From the IMG/VR virus record IMGVR_UViG_3300045988_103004, positions 1 to 38,881 of that record: 38,881 nucleotides of DNA. One strand, 5' to 3'. This document shows positions 5,738-27,216 of the stretch, piece by piece. Below the pieces are notes generated by a model that was not told where the DNA came from, searched no databases, and was given only the letters and a program-made list of their open reading frames with translations. Position 1 is the stretch's first letter, and each line of letters starts with the position of its first letter. A program made the position numbers and the translations under genes. Source of the stretch: a virus.

Positions 5738-7407
5738 ATTATGTAAAGCTTTATATTGAGAAACTAAAAAGTGGCGAGATTATAACAAGTCAAAAAGTTA
5801 AAAAATGGTATTTTAATCACATAGAGCCCATTATAAATGACCAAGATCCAAATTATTATTTTAATGAAAAACGCGGTGAAAAATTTATCCGCTTTGCTGA
5901 AACGTTTTGTAAACAGTCAAAAGATAGATGGGCAGGCAAACCATTATCATTATGCTTGTTTCAGAAGGCAAAATGGCAATGCATATTTGGAATTTTGAAG
6001 CGAGAAACCAATCGTAGAAAATTCCGTGAAGTACTTGATGTAAGAGGTAGAAAAAACGGGAAGTCAACTGAGCATGCAGCTGTTGCTAACTATTTAACAC
6101 TTACAGAAAAAGGCGGTGAGCTTTATAGTGCAGCGACAGTTGCTGATCAAGCTAGAAGAATCTGGGAAGAAAGCCAAAGTATGATAGATCAATCAAAAGA
6201 CCTCCAATCAGTTTTAGATTATAAAGTATTCCCTAGGCCTACTATTTATAAGAAAAGAACGGCTTTTAAATCAACATATAAAGTACTTTCAAAAAACGTT
6301 AGAACATTTGATGGACTTAATGCTTCTGGTGCTATTATTGATGAAATTCATGAATTGCCAAGATCCATTTATGATATTTTAAAACAATCAATGTCAGCAC
6401 GTAGTGAGCCATTACTAAGTATGATTACTACTGCTGGCTTCGTTCGTGCGGGATTGTTTGATGACGAATATGAATACGCATCAAAAGTTATAGATGGCTT
6501 AATACAGGATGAAACATTATTTCCGCTAATTTATGAATTAGATAGTCCAGATGAAATAGAAGATGAATCGTGTTGGATAAAAGCAAATCCAGCTATTGAT
6601 ATAATCAAAGATAGAGATGAACTAAGACGTAATGTTATAAGAATGAAAGGTGATCCTAATTTTGCAAATACAGTAAAAACAAAAGATTTTAATATGATAG
6701 GAATTCAAGGAAAGACATGGTTAACCTTTGAAGATTTAAATGTAACTGATGAATATAGCGAACAAGAATTGGAAAAATTTAATAACACTATAGTGCTTGG
6801 TGGTTTTGACTTGTCGCGTACTAATGACTTAACAGCATTCACAACTTTATTGTTTGATAAAGAGAATCATAGACCTATTGCAATTACGATGTACTGGATA
6901 ACTGCTAAATTTTTAGAGCAGCAAGAGCAAAATAATTCAAAAGTACCATGGAGGCAATGGGTGGATAGAGGCCTAATAAGAATTAGTGGTAATGAGCTAA
7001 TAGATTACCATGATATAGCAAATTATGTAGCAGCTAATTTTAAGCAAAGAGGATGGATGTATCAATTTATTAATTATGATAGCTACTCAGCTGTTTATTT
7101 AGTTCAAGAATTAGCACAAATGGGATACGCCGAAGATTACTGCTTAAAATCAACACCACAAGGTGCAAAGACCCTTAGCATACCAATGCAAACATTAGAA
7201 GCTCACTTGAAATCAAAGCTCATTTGTTATCAAAATAATCCAGTAACTAAGTGGATGTTATCCAATGTAGAGTTAGAACTTGATCGTAATGGAAACTATA
7301 TGCCTAAGAAAGCAGGCAATAAACGTGAAAGAAAAATAGATGGACCAGCAACTATTTTAGACTGTTATGTGAGCTTGTGCGAGAATGTAGATTACTACCT
7401 AAATTAA
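5734..7407 (+). CDS. terminase large subunit
   Basis: 557 aa; Walker A-like 'DVRGRKNGKSTE'; size and position (TerS-TerL-portal) fit. Confidence 0.85.
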   Translation: MNYVKLYIEKLKSGEIITSQKVKKWYFNHIEPIINDQDPNYYFNEKRGEKFIRFAETFCKQSKDRWAGKPLSLCLFQKAKWQCIFGILKRETNRRKFREVLDVRGRKNGKSTEHAAVANYLTLTEKGGELYSAATVADQARRIWEESQSMIDQSKDLQSVLDYKVFPRPTIYKKRTAFKSTYKVLSKNVRTFDGLNASGAIIDEIHELPRSIYDILKQSMSARSEPLLSMITTAGFVRAGLFDDEYEYASKVIDGLIQDETLFPLIYELDSPDEIEDESCWIKANPAIDIIKDRDELRRNVIRMKGDPNFANTVKTKDFNMIGIQGKTWLTFEDLNVTDEYSEQELEKFNNTIVLGGFDLSRTNDLTAFTTLLFDKENHRPIAITMYWITAKFLEQQEQNNSKVPWRQWVDRGLIRISGNELIDYHDIANYVAANFKQRGWMYQFINYDSYSAVYLVQELAQMGYAEDYCLKSTPQGAKTLSIPMQTLEAHLKSKLICYQNNPVTKWMLSNVELELDRNGNYMPKKAGNKRERKIDGPATILDCYVSLCENVDYYLN

Positions 7408-13221: not shown

Positions 13222-14664
13222 ATGGCAACAGAAGTATCAAGATCGCTAAGCGAAATTAACGCTGAATTAAGTAAAATCGATGAATCGTTAGGTAAGTGCA
13301 AGGATCAAACTTCATTGTTATCTAAAGCTCTACAAATTAATCCAAATAGTTTAGTGCTAATAAATGCTAAATATCAAGCACTAGGTAGACAAGTCGAAGA
13401 AGCAACAAAAAAGGTTAAACTTTTAAGAGAACAACAAAAACTAATGGTCAGCGAGGGTGTGGATAAAGAATCAAAAGAATTTAAAGATTTAACTACACAA
13501 ATCAAAAAAGCTGAATCACAAGTGAGATCACTAAAGGGACAATTGGAAAAAGTAGACTCTCAAAAGTTTAATAACTTAAAATCAGGTTTAAATGGAATAT
13601 CGCGTGCTTGCTCTATGATATTAGCTTCAGTTGTAGCAATAGGAGTTGCTTTTGCGGCATCAGGTGATGAAATAGCTAAAGCTTCAGAAAAATATAGTAT
13701 CAGTGCTGCTACTTATCAGTATTGGAAAAATATATTTTCAAAAACTACTGGCAATGATAATGGCTATATGACAACGCTAGCTAGTGTTACTAATTTATTA
13801 GGACAAGTGGCTAAAGGATCATCAAAAGCAGCAACAGCATTAGCTACGGTAGGATTAAGCTTAGAAGATATAAATGGATTAAGTTCTCAAGAGGCAATGT
13901 TAAAAATTATTAATGCCTTAAAAAACATTGAAGATGAAGAAACGAGAATAGCTGTAGCAACTGCTTTACTTGGAAATACTGGAACTGAAATTGCAATGGT
14001 TGCAGGACTTACGACCGATGAAATAGCTTCTTTAAATGAAGAAATGGATAACGCAGGATTAATTACTGACGAACAAGCACAAGCAGCAGCTAAACTTAAT
14101 GATGCTTATGATAATTTAAAAAATGAATTTAAGGCAGTGATAGTAGAACTAGGAACATCACTTATCCCTATGTTTCAAACGATTATTAATCTTGCTTCAG
14201 CGTTTACACCTTTGATTTCAGGAATTGCGAAAATTATGCAAGCAATAGGACCAGCCGGACAAGTTCTTATAATAGTTATATTAGGATTATTAGTAGTTAT
14301 TCCAAAATTAATAATAGGTGTGTATTCTTTAAACACAGCATTAACGGCTTTAGGTGCTAATCCTATTAGTGCAAAATTTTTATTGATTGCAGCGGCTGTT
14401 GCGGCAGTGACATTAGGTGTTACTGCATTAGCTGGTGCTATAACTAATTTAGATAATACTAGTGCAACAATTGATACAACATTAGCTGAATCAACACTTC
14501 AGCATACTGCTTCAGCAACAAGCGGAAATAGTGAAGGAACAAGCGGTAATACATACGTTACTTACAATGACTATGGAACTCAAAATGTTACGATAGATCA
14601 AGATATAGATATTGATGAAGTTATAGATGCGCTTCATTCTAAAAAAATTCAAGTGGGAGGATAA
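13222..14664 (+). CDS. tail tape measure protein (short, 480 aa)
   Basis: Coiled-coil N-terminus, internal hydrophobic/TM stretches ('IIVILGLLVVIPKLIIGVYSL', 'LLIAAAVAAVTLGVTALAGA'), position after the chaperones. Confidence 0.75.
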   Translation: MATEVSRSLSEINAELSKIDESLGKCKDQTSLLSKALQINPNSLVLINAKYQALGRQVEEATKKVKLLREQQKLMVSEGVDKESKEFKDLTTQIKKAESQVRSLKGQLEKVDSQKFNNLKSGLNGISRACSMILASVVAIGVAFAASGDEIAKASEKYSISAATYQYWKNIFSKTTGNDNGYMTTLASVTNLLGQVAKGSSKAATALATVGLSLEDINGLSSQEAMLKIINALKNIEDEETRIAVATALLGNTGTEIAMVAGLTTDEIASLNEEMDNAGLITDEQAQAAAKLNDAYDNLKNEFKAVIVELGTSLIPMFQTIINLASAFTPLISGIAKIMQAIGPAGQVLIIVILGLLVVIPKLIIGVYSLNTALTALGANPISAKFLLIAAAVAAVTLGVTALAGAITNLDNTSATIDTTLAESTLQHTASATSGNSEGTSGNTYVTYNDYGTQNVTIDQDIDIDEVIDALHSKKIQVGG

Positions 14665-18856: not shown

Positions 18857-20023
18857 ATGAAACTGTTAGAATCGATGAATACTGAAAATAATAATGTGGC
18901 TCAACAAGTAGATGATGGCGCTCTTATTAATTTCCAAGCAGCTGGTCAGCGTAGTGGATTGCTTTATGGTTGTAGCCTTACCACGTCAGGAAATAAGATA
19001 TATATCGATCCTGGTGTATTAATGATAAGAGGTTATAGACTAAAGATCGAAAGTAAGGAAGAAATTTATAATGCAAGTTCTTTGAGTTTTCCTTCAGTAA
19101 CTACCACTATGTATTTAATTCTTAGAATTACTAGAACAGGACATGATGCAACTTATAGCATATTCTTATCAGCGCAAGGTGCATCAATAACGACCCAGAT
19201 AGAAAAAGAAGAAGGTAGCTATGACTATCAATTAGCTAAAGTAGTTTTAATTTCTTCTGGAATAGCAAATGTTGTATCAACTATAGGAACGATTACTGCT
19301 AGTGCTAGTGGTAATACTGGCACAATAGGAATGCAGATACCTGCTCCAAAATTGGAAATAGTGGGTAATACCTCAGCACAATTAGCAAAAGCTTTTTTAT
19401 GTCTCGGTAATAAACAAGATTATTACAAGTTTACAAGTTCTTATGTAGTTAAGTTTGAATTTTATAGGTGGATGTCAAAAGGGAAATACCGCAAAAGAAA
19501 TGGCTCATCTAAAATTTACACATACAAAACTGGCTTTGTTAAAGTCTACGATCCTACAGGGAATGGAAGTTCCATGATAGGTTGGGAAGGCGATGTTAAA
19601 TTTAAAACAACTTTAAAGTATAGCGATATTACTCAACAAGAAATAGGATCAAATGGCAATTTTAAATACACAAAAGCAGTGATTGATAATATGCTTAATT
19701 ACGTGGATGGAATATTTCATGATAATGAACAAGATGATGGCCATGTAGCTAAAAATTCTGATGTATATAATATAAGGGCAACTAGAAGTAAATCGGTAAG
19801 TCCGTATGGGTGGCTAGGCAGAAAAATAGATGACCCAAAACCTGCTCGTCATAACTTCTTTAGATTTGCTTTCAAAGCTGTAGTTTATGATACAAATGGT
19901 AAAGAAGTAGGTAGATCAGACTTTAGCAATTCTGTACTTATTAGAGTAAACTACAGATATAAATCAGCTCTTTATACACAAGATTATGATATAGGCAAAT
20001 TTTTTAGAATTACATTAGTTTAA
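18857..20023 (+). CDS. tail protein, distant third paralog ('IDPGVLMIRGYRLKIESKEE' resembles the shared N-terminal domain)
   Basis: 388 aa; synteny; weak similarity to the N-terminal domain of the two preceding genes. Confidence 0.4.
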   Translation: MKLLESMNTENNNVAQQVDDGALINFQAAGQRSGLLYGCSLTTSGNKIYIDPGVLMIRGYRLKIESKEEIYNASSLSFPSVTTTMYLILRITRTGHDATYSIFLSAQGASITTQIEKEEGSYDYQLAKVVLISSGIANVVSTIGTITASASGNTGTIGMQIPAPKLEIVGNTSAQLAKAFLCLGNKQDYYKFTSSYVVKFEFYRWMSKGKYRKRNGSSKIYTYKTGFVKVYDPTGNGSSMIGWEGDVKFKTTLKYSDITQQEIGSNGNFKYTKAVIDNMLNYVDGIFHDNEQDDGHVAKNSDVYNIRATRSKSVSPYGWLGRKIDDPKPARHNFFRFAFKAVVYDTNGKEVGRSDFSNSVLIRVNYRYKSALYTQDYDIGKFFRITLV

Positions 20024-20030
20024 ATTTTAT

Positions 20031-20211
20031 TTTTAGGGCCCTTACTAGAGGGTGTAGAGAAATCAGGCGTAGCTGACTAAATGCTCCCCTCCGTGGATTA
20101 TGGCGAACTGCCGGGCATCAATATGTTGCTGGCGTAACGTTCTAGCCGCTTCAAATATAGATACTGCCGCCTTTTATTTACTCCCCTCACTTTCTAGTAA
20201 GGGCCCTAAAA
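20031..20211. repeat. 181-bp GC-rich element closed by perfect 18-bp terminal inverted repeats (TTTTAGGGCCCTTACTAG ... CTAGTAAGGGCCCTAAAA); MITE-like or structured RNA
   Basis: Perfect reverse-complement arms at 20031..20048 and 20194..20211; the interior is about 50% GC against a roughly 33% genome; internal direct repeats CTCCCCTC (x2) and ACTGCCG (x2); no ORF. Confidence 0.6.
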
Positions 20212-20239
20212 TCCATAAGCAAAGGAGGATAAACAGCAA

Positions 20240-21967
20240 ATGGAAAATGAATTAAGATTAAGACTCCATAATAATGGTAAATGGACTGAAATAATCGAAC
20301 AACCTGGCTTAGGAAATTCTTTTGAAAACAAAGCTACGACACTTGTTATAGAATTACCACAAAGCACCTATGGCTTTATGCACTTTTTAGAATTTTTAAA
20401 ACCATCAGGAAGTACTATTTCAACAGGCGCTATTGAAGAAAAAATAGATGATAGCGGAATCCATTATGTGGAATTTAAAGTAGTTAGCGGACTTATTGAT
20501 GAAAGAGGACGCTATCAAATGCAATATGTAGGTAGAAAAGGAAGTCAAACAATTACAGTTGTAAAGAGCGAGTTGAAAGCTTTAGATGTTTTTAAAAGTA
20601 TTAATTCAGGATTAGAAATTTCTATAAGTAATCCAGATTTTATTACATGGGCAACAGAAGAAATAAATAAAATGAGTAGTAGTATTTCCGAAGGCGATAA
20701 ATCAACACTTGAAGAAGCCAAGGCTTATGCTGATAAAAAGATTGCTGAAAAGCACTTAACTATTTATGGCGTTAGTGGCATAGGCGATGAAAACCCAGAA
20801 TTAACAAGAACTTATAATGCCGCAGGAATTAAACTTATTAAAACCAAAATAAATGGTAATATCGAAGTTACTGCTAACGATCCAGCGTTTCAAGAATTTT
20901 TTAACTTTAAAGAATCAACTGATGAACTAGGTAATGTGTTTGTGAACATTCCTCCTATGTCTTTTAAAATTGATAGAATTGAAAATAACGAAGTAAAAGC
21001 TATTTCTGTAAAATTATACGAAACAGGCGATGAAAATTTAGGTTTTGAGGTTCATCCGTTCTTTAGACACTATATTAACGAAACCGAGTGGGATGGTGTT
21101 ACTTCAAGACAAGTAGCTAAATACTTACTTTATTACCAAACAGAAGCTGATGGTGGCGATGGAAAAGTTCATTCTAAGTCTAATAAAAAATATGCAAGCA
21201 ATACATATTTAAATTGGGATAAAGGTAGACAAGCAATTAAAGATACTAAGGAAAGTTATGCGGTGATAAATTGGCATTTCATTTCATTCTTTAGATGGAT
21301 AACCTTGATTTATTTAGCTAGAGTAGATGTTTATAAATTTTTTGAAAAAGAAGATGTAGATGGTAAAGGCGATGAAGGAAATCCTATAGCACAACTATAT
21401 AATGCATGGAATTCAGAAACAGGACTAACAGATAGTATTGTTTCGCATACTGGTATGAATATAGAAAATACATCTATAAAATTATTCAATATTGATGATG
21501 CTTTACATGGCGTTTCATGCGGAGGTATTTATGTAAATAGTGAAGGAAAATATGGCTATTCAAATATCGCAGATTTTGATATTAACAAAGATACAGGAGC
21601 GGTAGAAGCACAGCAAGGAATTTTACAATCCATGTCTGTGGACAATGTAGAAGCTGACAATATAACTAAAATGGGTATTGTTGATGAAAACGAATATCTG
21701 CAAATGCCAGCAGCATTAAGGCTTGCAACATCAGATCTAACTTATGATTGTTCAAAAGCTTATCATAATTACTATTGTTCAAAAGCAAAATTTTGTGGTA
21801 ATCCAGCTGAAAGCGATAATCCTATTGGAAGAGCTCAAATTATATTCTTTGGTTGGACTGATGGACCATGTATAGATAATGGCCTCTTCTATTCTTACTG
21901 TTACTCTGGGGTCTACGACGCGTGGGCCGACCGCTACGGCTGCCGCCTTTGCAAACTCCCTTTATAG
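20240..21967 (+). CDS. DGR target protein (putative receptor-binding tail protein; the C-terminal about 25 aa are encoded by the variable repeat)
   Basis: 575 aa; the 3' end (21883..21952) is homologous to the downstream template repeat with mismatches only at template adenines; C-terminus '...FYSYCYSGVYDAWADRYGCRLCKLPL'. Confidence 0.8.
   Translation: MENELRLRLHNNGKWTEIIEQPGLGNSFENKATTLVIELPQSTYGFMHFLEFLKPSGSTISTGAIEEKIDDSGIHYVEFKVVSGLIDERGRYQMQYVGRKGSQTITVVKSELKALDVFKSINSGLEISISNPDFITWATEEINKMSSSISEGDKSTLEEAKAYADKKIAEKHLTIYGVSGIGDENPELTRTYNAAGIKLIKTKINGNIEVTANDPAFQEFFNFKESTDELGNVFVNIPPMSFKIDRIENNEVKAISVKLYETGDENLGFEVHPFFRHYINETEWDGVTSRQVAKYLLYYQTEADGGDGKVHSKSNKKYASNTYLNWDKGRQAIKDTKESYAVINWHFISFFRWITLIYLARVDVYKFFEKEDVDGKGDEGNPIAQLYNAWNSETGLTDSIVSHTGMNIENTSIKLFNIDDALHGVSCGGIYVNSEGKYGYSNIADFDINKDTGAVEAQQGILQSMSVDNVEADNITKMGIVDENEYLQMPAALRLATSDLTYDCSKAYHNYYCSKAKFCGNPAESDNPIGRAQIIFFGWTDGPCIDNGLFYSYCYSGVYDAWADRYGCRLCKLPL
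21883..21952 (+). repeat. DGR variable repeat (VR)
   Basis: cctcttctattctTactgtTacTCtGgggtcTacGacgcgtggGCcGacCGctacggctgccgcCttTgc; upper-case bases differ from the TR, and every difference lies opposite a TR adenine. Confidence 0.85.
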
Positions 21968-22085: not shown

Positions 22086-22158
22086 CCTCTTCTATTCTAA
22101 CTGTAACAATAGGGTCAACAACGCGTGGAACAACAACAACTACGGCTGCCGCATTAGC
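22086..22158 (+). repeat. DGR template repeat (TR)
   Basis: cctcttctattctaactgtaacaatagggtcaacaacgcgtggaacaacaacaactacggctgccgcattagc; rich in AAC codons when read in the VR frame; lies between the target gene and the RT. Confidence 0.85.
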
Positions 22159-22284
22159 TAAATAAATAAAATCTTTGTAATACAATTCCTGCTCCCTTGA
22201 GCAAAAGAAAATTCGATAAAGGGGCGGATTAGTAGCGTATAGATAATCGTCGAAAATCCGTTAGAGTTAGCAAAGGATTAAATT

Positions 22285-23295
22285 ATGAAAACATTAAAGA
22301 ACATCTACTCGAACCTTTACCAGCATGACACAATTAGAGATGTACTTACTGAATGTCTAAAAGACAAAAAGTATAGAAAAGAAATGCTGGGACGCTTAGA
22401 AGGTGACATTACTTATGTGCAATCATGCATGGGCACTTTTACCTTTAATAAAAAAGAAACTCATCAAGTGATAATTAGAGATCGTAAAAAAGAAAGAACG
22501 ATAACTATAAGCCCGTACTTTCCTAATAAGATATTTGATTATTTAGTTATTGCTCCATTAAAACCTATGATAAAGAAATCTATGTATAGGTGGAATGTGG
22601 GAAATGTAGAAGGTAGAGGAAAAGACATGGGAATACAGTTTCTTTATTCTCATATAAAAGGTTATAAGTATGCAATCAAACTAGACGTAAAGAAATTCTA
22701 TGACAACATAGACAAAAAGATTTTATTTAAATTGATTAAAAGAAAGGTATCAGATAGCGACTTTTTAAGAATGTATGAAGAAGTTATAGGAACAACTGGT
22801 AAAGGTCTTGATTTAGGCCTAAATTCAAGCCAGTGGCTAGCGAATTACTATTTGCAAGGCCTTGATTACTTCATAAAGCAAGAACTTAAAGCTGAAGTAT
22901 ATGTTCGCTATGTTGATGATATGATTATTCTGGGAAATAATAAAAGGAAATTGCATTATTTCATAAGAGCTATTAATCAATATTTAAAAGAAAAATTAAA
23001 TTTAAAATTAAAAGAAAATTATGCGTTGTTGAATTTAGAAAAAGGTGAAAGTGTGGAATTTGTGGGATACAAAATATCACATAAAGGAATACAACTTATA
23101 AAGCCTTTATTCCATAAGTTTATAAGACTCTACAAAAGAATGAAAGACATGTCAAAAAGACGTGCTAAAACGCTTGTTGCGCTTTGGGGATGGTTCAAAG
23201 CTACAACAGGTTCATACGCTTATTATATAAATCATTTAAGAGATACAATAATGTTCTCTGAAGTTAAAAGGTTATTAAGGAGGACCACAACATGA
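22285..23295 (+). CDS. DGR reverse transcriptase
   Basis: 336 aa; 'LDVKKFYDNID' (RT motif 2), 'LGLNSSQWLANYYLQGLD' (DGR-specific [IL]GxxxSQ motif that replaces QGxxxSP), 'YVRYVDDMIILG' (YxDD catalytic motif). Confidence 0.9.
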   Translation: MKTLKNIYSNLYQHDTIRDVLTECLKDKKYRKEMLGRLEGDITYVQSCMGTFTFNKKETHQVIIRDRKKERTITISPYFPNKIFDYLVIAPLKPMIKKSMYRWNVGNVEGRGKDMGIQFLYSHIKGYKYAIKLDVKKFYDNIDKKILFKLIKRKVSDSDFLRMYEEVIGTTGKGLDLGLNSSQWLANYYLQGLDYFIKQELKAEVYVRYVDDMIILGNNKRKLHYFIRAINQYLKEKLNLKLKENYALLNLEKGESVEFVGYKISHKGIQLIKPLFHKFIRLYKRMKDMSKRRAKTLVALWGWFKATTGSYAYYINHLRDTIMFSEVKRLLRRTTT

Positions 23296-23885
23296 CATCA
23301 GAATTCATAAATAAATTACTAGATGAACTCGAGGGAAGAGGAATAAGAAGAAATACAATTGAATGCATTTTACAAGAAGGATCATCTTTATACTTAGAAA
23401 ATCCTAACGATTTAGATTTTAAAGTAATTGTTAGTTATTATAACCCTAAGGCAGAAACATTTAGTCCTATTGTAATTGATGGCACAGCGGTAGAATGCTG
23501 CTTTTATACGCCACGTGACTGGAATAGGGTTTGTGATTATAAGAAAGCATACTTCATTGTGGAATGCCCAGATATGAAATGCGTATATGGCGACGACTCT
23601 AATTTTAAACGCTATGATGTGCTACATGACAAGAATTTACAAAAATACATAATTAATATCTATGATAAGTTTTTATTTAATGTAGATCCTAATAATAAGA
23701 AAATACAACCATTTAAAAAGAAACGTTTGTGGAATTTCTTATTATTTGCATATCGCATCAAAAATAATTCTTTAGAAGTTACACCAACACAACTTAACAC
23801 AATTCAAAATGCACATGATCAAAAAGTAGAAGTAGAATCATATCAAGTATTATTTGAAGATATTAAAAGAATTGTAAATGCCTAA
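23292..23885 (+). CDS. minimal nucleotidyltransferase-fold protein (Pol-beta superfamily, ANT-like), translationally coupled to the RT
   Basis: 197 aa; 'GSSLYLENPNDLDFKV' fits hG[GS]x9-13Dh[DE]h; ATGA overlap with the RT stop. Confidence 0.55.
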   Translation: MTSEFINKLLDELEGRGIRRNTIECILQEGSSLYLENPNDLDFKVIVSYYNPKAETFSPIVIDGTAVECCFYTPRDWNRVCDYKKAYFIVECPDMKCVYGDDSNFKRYDVLHDKNLQKYIINIYDKFLFNVDPNNKKIQPFKKKRLWNFLLFAYRIKNNSLEVTPTQLNTIQNAHDQKVEVESYQVLFEDIKRIVNA

Positions 23886-24120: not shown

Positions 24121-24185
24121 AGATAAAATACTCCTTTATTTTTATTATAAAAATGATACAATAATAATAGAAGTCAACCCCCAAA

Positions 24186-24232
24186 GGGGCCCCTGCCCTA
24201 GGACAGGGGGGAAGAGCAATTACTTGCTCTTC
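24186..24232. other. two adjacent GC-rich hairpins (CCCCTG..CAGGGG and GAAGAGCAA-ttac-TTGCTCTTC)
   Basis: 6-bp and 9-bp perfect stems lying between the two small minus-strand genes; the second overlaps the stop of the 24220..24324 ORF. Confidence 0.5.
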
Positions 24233-25026: not shown

Positions 25027-25543
25027 AAGATTTTATGCATTAATTGCTACACACAAAGATCTAGGTGACCTAGAATCAAAAGCTCTTCAATGTGACAAGC
25101 ATGCCGTTGGCTTAACTAAATCAGGAAAGCTCTATAAATACAATTCACGTATTAAAGAGGCTACCGAGATTAGCGAAGAAGAAGCAGCTAACATACTTGA
25201 ATGCTCTATTGAAGATGTTAAGAAAATTAAAGAGAGTAAAGCTCGTTTTGTTTTTTCTGAACCAGTGGATGAGGTAAAAATTGTCCACCCAGTTATAGAA
25301 GAAACATTAGGCGAAGAAGAAACTCAAAATCCAGTAATTGAAAAAGAAGATGCTGAAGATGAAGAAGATGACGAAGTAGAAGATGAAGATCCTACTTCTG
25401 ATATTGATGATTTAATCGAATCAGTTGAAGATGCTTCAGCAGATGTCCAAGATGCCTTAGATAAAAACGCCGATAAAATTACAAATTTATTAACAAGAAT
25501 TGCAAATGCACTAGAAGATATTAATAAAAAACTTTTAGACTAA
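25018..25543 (+). CDS. hypothetical protein with a highly acidic C-terminal region (the ORF is open from 24911; the likely start is 25018 after aaaggag)
   Basis: 'MVKRFYALIATHKDLGDLESKALQCDKH...EDAEDEEDDEVEDEDPTSDIDDLIE'. Confidence 0.4.
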
Positions 25544-27216
25544 GCAATTGTAAAGGTGAAATCAATATTTTCAATTATATTAAATTTGAAATCAGACATA
25601 GAAACTTTCGTGCGTAAAAGTACAATCGTTGAGACGGTAGTATTACTGCGCACGAAAATGTCAGACCCTACTGATGAAGAGTAGGAGCCATTGAAAATAG
25701 GAAATTTAAAAGTAAATTCCAAACGGTCAGGATAAACTATTATACTTTCTAAAAATGTTGATATTAACATTTTACGATATTCTATATCAGATTTATCACC
25801 TTTAAGCGCCTTTAAAAAGGTGCTTTTTATTTGCTTTGTAGTAGGTAGTGGCTTATTACTTTGTGCTGCTTCAACTCGTGCTAATTCTTGATTTAGGCTT
25901 GCTTTTTTTGTTCTACAATCTTTTAAACGTTCTTCGTATTTTTCTTTACTAATTAAACCAGAAATATATGCATCAAGTAATTTGTCTTCTTGACTTTCTA
26001 ATTTTTGAATGCTCTTCTTAATAGATTTAACATCAAATAATTGTTCGCTTTGGCGTTTGCGTGCATCCTTTAATAAAGTAACAATGGAATCGATTATGCT
26101 GTCGCTAGAAATGCAACGCTCAATTAATTCTATGGTGTAGTCCTCAAGCGGTTCTTTTCTTAAAAATACATTATCACATATTTTTTTATAATCACGTACT
26201 GTACAAGCTTCTGTCTTTAAATGCCTTTTTGAGCATCGGTAAGAGTGGTATTCATATTTATAAATGCGCTCGCCTTTTCTGTTGTGACCAGTGCTCTTAG
26301 ATTTGTGGCCATAATAGTTTGAGCCACAGACTCCGCAAAAAATATAACCAGTTAATAAATAAGTTGTTTCTTTTTCTCTTGCTCTTACTTCACGAGTATG
26401 AGTCCACCATTCTTCTTGGTGCTTTTTCTTAATAGAAGAAGCCTGTTCAAACAATTCTTTACTTACAATAGCAGGACATCCATCTTCAATAGTGATGGGT
26501 GTTTTTGTTTTGTCCCTACTTCGTAGACCAAAAATATAAGTTCCTTTATACATAGGATTATCAAGCATACGAGAAATAGAGGTTGATGAAATAATTCTGC
26601 CTTGTCTATTTCTAACACCACGATCATATAAAGAGCGCGAAACTGATCCATAAGACTCACCAGAAGCAACACGTGAAAAGATTTCCTGAATAATTTTAGC
26701 TTCTTCAGGAATTATGACATACTTTTTATTTTCAACAGCATAGCCGTATGTGACATAACCACCACCTAAAAATTGGCATCTTTTAGCTGCTTCGTTTTTT
26801 CCTTTTAAAGTTTCACGTGATAAGTTTTTAGAATAATACTCAGCTAAGGCATCGTAAAGTGCCTCCATAATTCCAGCTTCTGGTGAATTATCCAAAGGCT
26901 CTAAAACAGAAATAATCCTAACCCCTGCATCACGTAATACTTTTTTATAAATAGTAGCATCGTATTTGTTTCTAGCAAAACGATCGAATTTATGAACTAT
27001 AAGGCATTCAAACTTTTTAGCTTTTGCATCGGTAATCATTTGCTGGAATTCTGCACGATCGTCAATAGTTCCAGAACGAGCTTCATCGGCATACGTAAAA
27101 GAAAGCGTATAGCCTTCACGCTCACAATAATTCTTTATAGCATTTAATTGGGCTTCAATTGAATAGCCATCTCTTTGACCTTCGGAAGAGTAACGAACAT
27201 AAGCTGCACAAATCAT
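25540..27216 (-). CDS. large serine recombinase (phage integrase)
   Basis: 558 aa; N-terminal resolvase catalytic domain 'AAYVRYSSEGQRDGYSIEAQ' (Ser nucleophile), large C-terminal recombinase/zinc-ribbon/coiled-coil region. Confidence 0.9.
   Translation of the reverse strand: MICAAYVRYSSEGQRDGYSIEAQLNAIKNYCEREGYTLSFTYADEARSGTIDDRAEFQQMITDAKAKKFECLIVHKFDRFARNKYDATIYKKVLRDAGVRIISVLEPLDNSPEAGIMEALYDALAEYYSKNLSRETLKGKNEAAKRCQFLGGGYVTYGYAVENKKYVIIPEEAKIIQEIFSRVASGESYGSVSRSLYDRGVRNRQGRIISSTSISRMLDNPMYKGTYIFGLRSRDKTKTPITIEDGCPAIVSKELFEQASSIKKKHQEEWWTHTREVRAREKETTYLLTGYIFCGVCGSNYYGHKSKSTGHNRKGERIYKYEYHSYRCSKRHLKTEACTVRDYKKICDNVFLRKEPLEDYTIELIERCISSDSIIDSIVTLLKDARKRQSEQLFDVKSIKKSIQKLESQEDKLLDAYISGLISKEKYEERLKDCRTKKASLNQELARVEAAQSNKPLPTTKQIKSTFLKALKGDKSDIEYRKMLISTFLESIIVYPDRLEFTFKFPIFNGSYSSSVGSDIFVRSNTTVSTIVLLRTKVSMSDFKFNIIENIDFTFTIA

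Follow-up and report, generated by a model that had tools for sequence, protein, structure and literature searches.

Positions 20031-20211 of the virus record IMGVR_UViG_3300045988_103004, a stretch of 38,881 nt that is called the window here and to which all coordinates refer unless another locus is named, hold a 181-base element that very probably specifies a conserved structured RNA of the sense strand. The element occupies the gap between a tail gene and the gene for a receptor-binding-type protein (RBP), and it is an inherited, single-copy, syntenic feature of a small gut-phage lineage. Its relatives form an RNA family that is absent from Rfam 15 and that belongs with the orphan, cis-linked structured RNA motifs of phages. 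The architecture modelled for the family is an irregular rod of ~30 bp (P1, P1b or an extension of P1, and a long-range P2) closing a three-way junction, and compensatory changes are found in at least five helices across the family.

A conserved element between two tail genes

The ends of the element form a perfect inverted repeat, as the initial annotation had claimed: read as its reverse complement, TTTTAGGGCCCTTACTAG at 20031-20048 matches 20194-20211 exactly. When extended, the arms reach 24 nt with 92% complementarity (20031-20054 against 20188-20211). The 18-mer arm has no third site in the window with up to three mismatches allowed, the chance expectation being 0.01 matches. The GC enrichment and the internal repeats described at the same time were both found again. 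The 145-nt interior (20049-20193) has a GC content of 48.3% and the whole element 47.5%, against 33.4% for the window; CTCCCCTC occurs twice (20084 and 20181), ACTGCCG twice (20107 and 20163) and the palindrome AACGTT once (20136). A ribosome-binding site does follow within 25 nt, with AGGAGG at 20223 and the ATG at 20240.

Relatives were gathered through protein homologues in a large protein collection, and host genomes were covered through this protein-anchored search only. The 16 loci fetched represent ~11 distinct lineages, and one of them (L008) is a prophage in a metagenome-assembled genome of the Erysipelotrichaceae, which carries a large form of the RNA. In all 16 loci a non-coding gap of 190-400 nt lies at the same place between the tail gene and the RBP gene, and each gap contains a segment, 132-320 nt long and rich in GC, with ends that pair with each other. 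The segment starts 2-17 nt past the upstream stop codon and ends 25-74 nt before the RBP start. The letters of the arms vary by lineage with their complementarity kept, as in ..UAUCCGAGG/CCUCGGAUA.. of L001 and ..UAUCUGAGG/CCUCAGAUA.. of L138. Homologues of the upstream protein, always encoded 5' of the element, are 38-52% identical to it, and those of the first 150 amino acids (aa) of the downstream protein 39-62%. The flanking proteins are thus only 38-62% identical across the family, yet the fold is retained, and the element has diverged together with the genes on either side.

Each related locus yields exactly one match to a profile hidden Markov model (HMM) trained on 12 members. The model finds no second copy in the window and no match among ~150 unrelated viral loci collected by loose pattern scans. 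Across the 16 assembled loci the interior always points the same way. INPHARED yielded no relatives to blastn or tblastn, whether the query was the element, the 7.5-kb region or the N-terminal domain of the RBP. A search of IMG/VR for exact arms gave no matches, and one with three degenerate motif patterns gave either nothing or chance matches only, as judged by stem search and nhmmer. The copy in the window is among the smallest members. Members are of types A, B and C, and membership of types B and C was assigned by synteny and hand-registered helices.

The element had been said to encode no open reading frame (ORF), and this holds in the sense that the stop-free stretches vary in strand and frame between homologues, although a mechanical ORF of 51 aa is present at 20100..20255. 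A missed protein-coding gene was considered and rejected: the longest open stretch differs in strand or frame among members and no frame is common to them. L001 and L007 differ by an indel of 22 nt, and indels in the family are not multiples of three.

The predicted fold

The closing stem, P1, is 12-20 bp long in the family, and in relatives bulges and A·C or G·U positions break it up. At one of its positions, G20037·C20205, the pair is G-C in the window and L131, G·U in L133 and A-U in L002, L008 and L138, and the equivalent position is A·C in seven lineages (L001, L003, L004, L007, L134, L135 and L143). Such a pattern is typical where wobble geometry is required, and the surrounding bases (YUAGRRCC/GGYYCUAR) are conserved both as pairs and as letters.

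Beyond P1, the rod of the window continues directly, AGGGUG being contiguous with P1 and pairing with CACUUU (20188-20193) through two G·U pairs among others. In relatives the corresponding helix, P1b, covaries as GRRGG/CCYYC (GAGGG/CCCUC, GGAGG/CCUCC and GGGGG/CCCCC), and a bulge in the 3' strand usually sets it off from P1. Next comes a conserved GUGUAG segment; G22, U23 and A24 are invariant in the structure-blind alignment A6. P2 consists of two segments. Its usual form is ..AAUCGG/CCGAU(G).., in which a G is bulged or an A·G mismatch occurs, and in the window it reads AAAU-C-AGGCG/CGCCU-UUU-AUUU. Its covariation among relatives includes AUCGG/CCGAU, GUCGAG/UUUGAC and AUCGGA/UUUGAU. A local hairpin after GUGUAG (UCAG/CUGA) was considered and given up, since the long-range P2 accommodates every member and shows the G·U signal described below.

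Most type-A members also have a conserved 5'-GUA-3' (20054-20056 in the window) that faces an equally conserved 5'-GA-3' across the rod. The GA of relatives lies in the 3' strand YUGAAC just before P1b; the window keeps the GUA, and the GA side is lost. From its sequence the GUA/GA loop may resemble a bulged-G (sarcin-ricin or loop E-like) internal loop.

On a hand-registered alignment of 14 sequences, 90.3% of the cells in the rod form standard pairs, whereas shuffles give 59.9% and none of 500 equals the real alignment. The percentage paired is inflated by the hand registration of part of the alignment, which favours structure. Sliding the partner strand on this alignment reduces pairing to 32-47%, and double changes occur in all 32 pairs (145 cells). 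Because of the bias from hand registration, the same pairs were mapped onto a structure-blind MAFFT alignment of the 12 full-length type-A elements. Here 86.2% of cells are paired against 72.9% in shuffles (0 of 500), sliding gives 31-53%, and double changes are found in 22 pairs.

The rod closes a junction with two arms, one made of Pa and Pc with the unpaired motif CCUCNGUG, and the other a size-variable arm 2. Pa was found de novo by RNAalifold and covaries as ACGCC/GGCGU, AGGAU/GUCCU, AGGUC/GACCU and UUGUU/GACAA. The hairpin Pc has the form GGCG/NGCC in small members and GGUG/CACA in large ones, with the central pair changing from C-G to U-A. For Pa and Pc together, 88.9% of cells are paired against 69.9% in shuffles. 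Within the motif CCUCCGUG that separates the two helices, C57, U58, C59, G61 and G63 are invariant in 12 type-A sequences, and no covarying partner for this motif was found in the family.

The family motif CCUCNGUG lies inside Pa, and members of type B lack it at that position. Pairing of it with the 5' strand of P1b, with UAGAG or with CACAG was tried, and L008, L002 and L007 each break one or another of these. No partner therefore holds family-wide, and the motif has been left unpaired. Judged by sequence, pairing with the Shine-Dalgarno sequence (SD) of the RBP gene is possible in type A and absent in type B. In L008 alone, the conserved GGUGUAGAG (5806-5814 of that locus) is perfectly complementary to an inserted UCUACACUC (6018-6026) in the 3' bulge between P1b and P1, an alternative pairing that is seen in no other lineage.

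Arm 2 is ~45 nt in the window and a domain of 100-200 nt in the large members, where it has conserved blocks of its own (GUGUAAAA and AAUAAG). In the window it is a single hairpin, 20128-33 pairing with 20145-49. The sole arm-2 substitution in L141, a close relative, is U20130 to A, which falls on a bulged base.

Folding of the window element as RNA gives -70 kcal/mol with a z-score of -4.5, and the comparative helices, when imposed on it, raise the free energy by only 0.5 kcal/mol over the minimum. Relative to its own shuffles every member is more stable, with z-scores from -2.3 to -7.6. Such thermodynamic stability does not discriminate between the strands, but the wobble pairs do. G·U pairs, which are mismatches on the reverse strand, outnumber A·C by 26 to 12 in the rod and by 13 to 0 in inner P2, and the RNA is therefore taken to be made in the direction of the genes (+).

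Known classes of RNA

None of the 4227 models of Rfam 15 matches the element, and none reaches its gathering score in the window. With the threshold relaxed to E-values up to 10 across 19900-20350, the single match is a chance one to a miRNA (E = 8), and in eight relatives nothing overlaps the element. ARAGORN calls no tRNA or tmRNA, and no promoter-like or terminator-like site is present in 19900-20300. In the literature we found no description of this element, nor of an RNA upstream of the targets of diversity-generating retroelements (DGRs) or of phage RBP genes.

Two further classes were tried and set aside. An intrinsic terminator does not fit, as 133-145 nt separate the arms and the sequence after them is AAAAUCCAUAAG instead of a U-run; the absence of a T-run after the stem had been remarked on before, and the terminator scan of the region is empty. 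A retron RNA (msr-msd) is no better, the only reverse transcriptase (RT) gene being 2 kb downstream and of the DGR type, with its own template repeat (TR) and RT-18 motif.

In the window there are 24 contiguous predicted pairs on the sense transcript, where an RNase III-type site would call for at least 20 bp of largely uninterrupted double-stranded RNA; relatives offer the 12-20 bp of P1 plus P1b and P2, supported by covariation. For a riboswitch aptamer the picture is mixed: covarying helices and invariant nucleotides are present in type A, and several of them are lacking in types B and C. No conserved pairing that would be mutually exclusive with the SD/AUG region, as in a riboswitch expression platform, was found in the family. 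The window does have a 16-nt complementarity between 20088-20103 and 20213-20228, but this is not conserved in relatives.

Comparative genomics has yielded orphan structured RNA motifs, many of them phage-associated, including RT-1 to RT-19 near RT genes (Weinberg et al. 2017, PMC5737381). The present family resembles these motifs in being defined by intergenic conservation and covariation and in its link to a particular neighbour gene. It differs from RT-1 to RT-19 in lying 5' of an RBP gene rather than beside an RT gene, and in occurring where no DGR is seen (L135).

A leader for the receptor-binding protein gene?

Three candidates had been proposed at the outset for the element: a mobile insertion of the miniature inverted-repeat transposable element (MITE) type, a cis-acting structured RNA leader, and a protein-recognition site. 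The structured leader is the one that the comparisons support. The MITE is refuted, and a pure protein- or DNA-recognition site is unlikely because the covarying, G·U-rich helices inside the element point to RNA. The more specific labels of riboswitch and ribozyme attached to the leader find no support, there being no Rfam match, no expression platform with alternative pairing, and a closing rod that is very stable.

Tentatively, and with nearly as much belief as doubt, we read the element as a cis-acting leader module in the late tail mRNA, by which the RBP cistron would be separated or processed, stabilised and tuned. The RNA would be made as part of the late polycistronic mRNA of the tail operon and would act in cis, because it has no promoter or terminator of its own and a fixed place between a stop codon and the RBP start. 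The very stable rod would block ribosomes and so end translational coupling with the upstream tail gene, and the element would keep the untranslated gap of 200-400 nt folded. The rod may also serve as a long double-stranded entry or docking site, where an enzyme of the RNase III type could cut or a protein of the phage or the host could recognise the conserved junction. A separate mRNA segment, processed and stabilised, would in that case express the RBP cistron together with the DGR that follows it here.

Initiation would be set by the downstream SD together with a weak, conserved hairpin that includes the start codon. Twelve of 13 distinct leaders have a UCCAU box complementary to the start region AUGGA, with the SD in the intervening loop, and the extent of the box tracks the bases before the AUG (UCCAUAU/AUAUGGA, UUCCAUU/AAUGGAA and UUUCCA/UGGAAA). 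This pairing of box and start codon is a prediction from the letters. In L138 the box reads UUUAU, and pairing would persist there via two G·U pairs. A covariation test of this hairpin gave no signal, and since the start side is invariant coding sequence, the result says nothing for or against it.

RNase III sites in phage polycistronic mRNAs, such as the intercistronic R sites of T7 and the lambda N leader, are single hairpins of ~50-60 nt with an internal bubble. The element is like them in being a long, irregular, sense-strand stem between cistrons that has no terminator function and stands before the next ribosome-binding site. It is unlike them in its length of 130-320 nt, its predicted three-way junction, its invariant unpaired nucleotides and its expandable arms.

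Several points weigh against this account of the element as a leader. Co-transcription, processing and an effect on RBP synthesis are things that we infer. The sample is small, with only ~11 independent lineages, and the hand registration already mentioned flatters the rod. The start-codon hairpin of the window is weak (-5.2 kcal/mol, z-score -0.7). The copy in the window is itself weak in several family signatures, having neither the GA half of the GUA/GA internal loop nor the AAUC/GAU(G) sequence of P2, and may be a reduced variant. Finally, the conserved junction nucleotides and the modular arms exceed the needs of a simple RNase III site or insulator. This excess conservation hints at a specific ligand, a protein partner or a catalytic activity, and so gives some weight to a sensing RNA or an RNA with its own activity.

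The first of these would be a regulatory RNA that switches translation of the RBP, either as a riboswitch-like aptamer for a small molecule or as an autogenous operator for a protein of the tail or RBP module. We regard it as unlikely. Riboswitch aptamers and translational operators resemble the element in that several helices meet at a junction with conserved nucleotides, the two ends join in a stem, and the SD and start codon follow directly. The complex fold with its invariant unpaired junction nucleotides (CCUCNGUG, GUA and GGYG) speaks for such an RNA, and the size-variable peripheral arms around a constant core are aptamer-like. The SD and start codon directly downstream are partly sequesterable, and CCUCC is complementary to the SD. 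The closing stem, however, has 24 contiguous bp in the window and ~30 bp in total, a stability far beyond that of a switching P1. In this respect the element is unlike riboswitch aptamers, as it is in having no overlapping expression platform and no family match, even at E up to 10 in Rfam. No conserved alternative pairing with the SD or AUG was found, the 16-nt complementarity of the window is unconserved, and type B has no CCUCNGUG at the expected position. The strict co-occurrence of the RNA with the RBP N-terminal domain and the upstream tail gene speaks for such a sensor, but it is also expected from simple inheritance as a module.

A bolder reading, which we hold to be quite unlikely, is that the element is the founding example of a class of complex-folded phage RNAs with an activity of their own, be it a sensing switch or a self-cleaving ribozyme, that gates RBP synthesis.

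It is distinctly improbable that the element is a stand-alone functional RNA, that is, a self-cleaving ribozyme between the tail and RBP genes, or a trans-acting non-coding RNA that is excised from the transcript to serve as a decoy, in anti-defence or in assembly. Its size of 130-320 nt, conserved junction, expandable domains and GC enrichment are typical of catalytic and stand-alone RNAs, many excised stable RNAs have their 5' and 3' ends paired in a long stem, and the sequence at the base of P1 (YUAGRRCC/GGYYCUAR) is conserved. Against this, Rfam 15 gives no ribozyme or non-coding RNA match, no tRNA- or tmRNA-like call was made, the element lacks its own promoter and terminator, and strict placement a few tens of nucleotides before one gene is more typical of cis elements.

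Very little can be said for a role in the DGR, as an RNA cofactor or as a boundary element that, for example, marks the 5' end of the target-TR-RT transcript or aids retrohoming. The DGR itself, noted in the initial annotation, is real. Its variable repeat (VR, ~21883-21947) is near the 3' end of the 575-aa RBP ORF, its TR is at ~22086-22150 and its RT gene at 22285..23295, and most relatives likewise have the DGR target next to the element with VR, TR and RT just downstream. The tie to the DGR that had been implied is nevertheless incidental. L140 has a target homologous over the central and C-terminal (variable) part, followed by an RT gene, but its tail module is different, its target has a BppU_N-type N-terminus, and the gap before the target gene is 14 nt with no RNA in it. 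L135, conversely, has the upstream tail gene and the RNA with an RBP that resembles the window protein only over the N-terminal 170 aa, and no RT domain or VR/TR repeat is present within the locus examined, which stops ~0.5 kb short of the contig end. The RNA therefore belongs to, and travels with, the module formed by the tail gene and the RBP N-terminal domain, not with the DGR. An RNA component of the DGR can be rejected on position as well, for the element sits 5' of the target gene and not between the target or avd and the RT gene. The known DGR-linked RNA of this locus is RT-18, and the element is ~1.7 kb from the VR, at the other end of the gene.

That the element acts as DNA, as an invertible promoter or terminator switch or as a palindromic site for protein binding or recombination at a module boundary, is hardly to be expected. 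Like the invertons, it has inverted repeats of ~20 bp around 130-300 bp, here a perfect 18-bp pair around 145 bp, immediately 5' of a host-range determinant. The window also encodes a serine recombinase (25540..27216), and repeats matched by recombination could mimic covariation, though in P1 only. Unlike the invertons, the element has a single orientation across the 16 loci, an interior that covaries as RNA, and neither an internal promoter-like site nor a dedicated invertase. The recombinase has the architecture of a large serine integrase (Resolvase, Recombinase and Zn_ribbon_recom) and lies 5 kb off. The P1 of relatives has bulges and A·C or G·U positions in it. P2, Pa and Pc covary as well, and DNA symmetry leaves the G·U bias of P2 unexplained. 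The strand-specific wobble in covarying, bulged helices and the single orientation together argue against all rivals at the DNA level.

The MITE can be dismissed: the terminal inverted repeats (18 nt perfect, 24 nt at 92%), small size, non-coding nature and composition unlike the surroundings do recall one, but there is no target-site duplication, the flanks ...AAATTTTAT and TCCATAAGC... showing no direct repeat, no second copy of the arm in the window, no exact arm in IMG/VR and nothing similar in INPHARED, and each related phage has exactly one copy at the same site, inherited vertically with the flanking genes.

Surrounding genes and other features of the locus

The genes around the element are the tail module of a temperate siphovirus-like phage. 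The 388-aa upstream ORF is the fifth after the tape-measure gene (13222..14664). The features of the element and its immediate flanks are collected in Table 1.

Table 1. Features of the predicted RNA and of the sequences flanking it in the window
Feature	Position	Strand	Remarks
Upstream flanking gene, 388-aa tail-module protein	18857..20023	+	stop codon 7 nt before P1
P1, 5' arm of closing stem, UUUUAGGGCCCUUACUAG	20031..20048	+	exact reverse complement of 3' arm; covaries across family
P1 extension/P1b 5' strand AGGGUG and GUGUAG motif	20049..20056	+	pairs with 3' strand
P2 5' strand GAG-AAAU-(C)-AGGCG	20057..20069	+	pairs with 20168-20183 in unconstrained and comparative-constrained folds
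Pa 5' strand AUGCU	20081..20085	+	RNAalifold pairs columns 51-55 with 118-122 (structure-blind alignment A6)
Conserved unpaired motif CCUCCGUG (consensus YCUCNGYG)	20088..20095	+	loop between Pa and Pc
Pc hairpin GGC(G)-AAC(U)-GCC	20102..20112	+	central pair covaries
Pa 3' strand GGCAU	20114..20118	+	partner of AUGCU 20081-85
Arm-2 hairpin GC(U)GGC - GUAACGUUCUA - GCCGC	20128..20149	+	holds AACGTT palindrome; constrained fold
P2 3' strand CGCCU-(UUU)-AUUU-(A)-CUC	20168..20183	+	pairs with 20057-20069
P1b 3' strand CCCUC/P1 extension 3' strand CACUUU	20184..20193	+	pairs with 5' strand; covariation
P1, 3' arm	20194..20211	+	complementary to 5' arm; covariation
Rest of RBP leader: UCCAU box 20212-20216, SD AGGAGG 20223-20228, AUGGA 20240-20244	20212..20244	+	
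Downstream gene, 575-aa RBP	20240..21967	+	conserved N-terminal domain of ~150 aa

The N-terminal domain of the RBP (150 aa) is found on proteins of ~50 to 1292 aa with differing C-termini, almost always at the N-terminus. With 84 clusters (E <= 1e-3) in a set of 1.84 billion representative proteins, the module of tail gene and N-terminal domain is rare. The RBP itself is modular, its central and C-terminal (variable) part being common to proteins with a BppU_N-type N-terminus (P0012-P0018 and L140 compared).

Within the DGR, VR and TR are 74% identical and the differences observed fall at template adenines. The order is target-TR-RT with no avd-like gene between, and a 197-aa ORF without a Pfam family (23292..23885) follows the RT gene. 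The orphan RT-18 motif occupies the spacer between TR and RT in this DGR lineage and is a feature separate from the 20031-20211 element. In the window the match to RT-18 (Rfam RF03021) is at 22191-22278 (+), with 39.3 bits against a gathering score of 41.3, and in L003 and L008 it is above the gathering score. The coordinates in relatives are 7192-7269 in L003, 8272-8346 in L008, 5333-5422 in L133, 6391-6470 in L139 and 9365-9440 in L001. RT-18 is an orphan motif known solely by its location near RT genes (PMC5737381).

The GGGCCC-containing palindromes at 2771-2785 and 24186-24211, which had been listed as recurrences of the same kind of sequence, are unrelated, showing no similarity to the element in the family HMM search. 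They look like ordinary small intergenic hairpins. At 24176-24211, in the gap 3' of the DGR cassette, the GC hairpins CCCCCAAAGGGG and CCCCUGCCCUAGGACAGGGG are adjacent, and one of the two scores as terminator-like on the minus strand; both are unrelated to the element. A sigma-70-like promoter with a perfect 12/12 match lies on the minus strand (24377-24349). In L008, two tRNA genes (1191-1263 and 1275-1348) are found upstream of the tail module.

Implications

Structured RNAs with at least five covarying helices are rare, and new classes of them have tended to bring new regulation or chemistry. The RNA described here sits at the entry to a host-range gene, and in most members the same gene is hypermutated by a DGR; the RBP leader and the DGR cassette form two modules, not one. 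If the RNA controls the amount or timing of RBP, it would be a previously undescribed lever on phage host range, and a compact, portable leader for engineering the expression of tail-fibre genes. Were it to have an activity of its own, production of the host-range protein in these phages would be controlled at the level of RNA. Even as a mere processing or insulation module, it would provide a defined and testable case of RNA-level operon architecture in the little-studied phages of gut Firmicutes.

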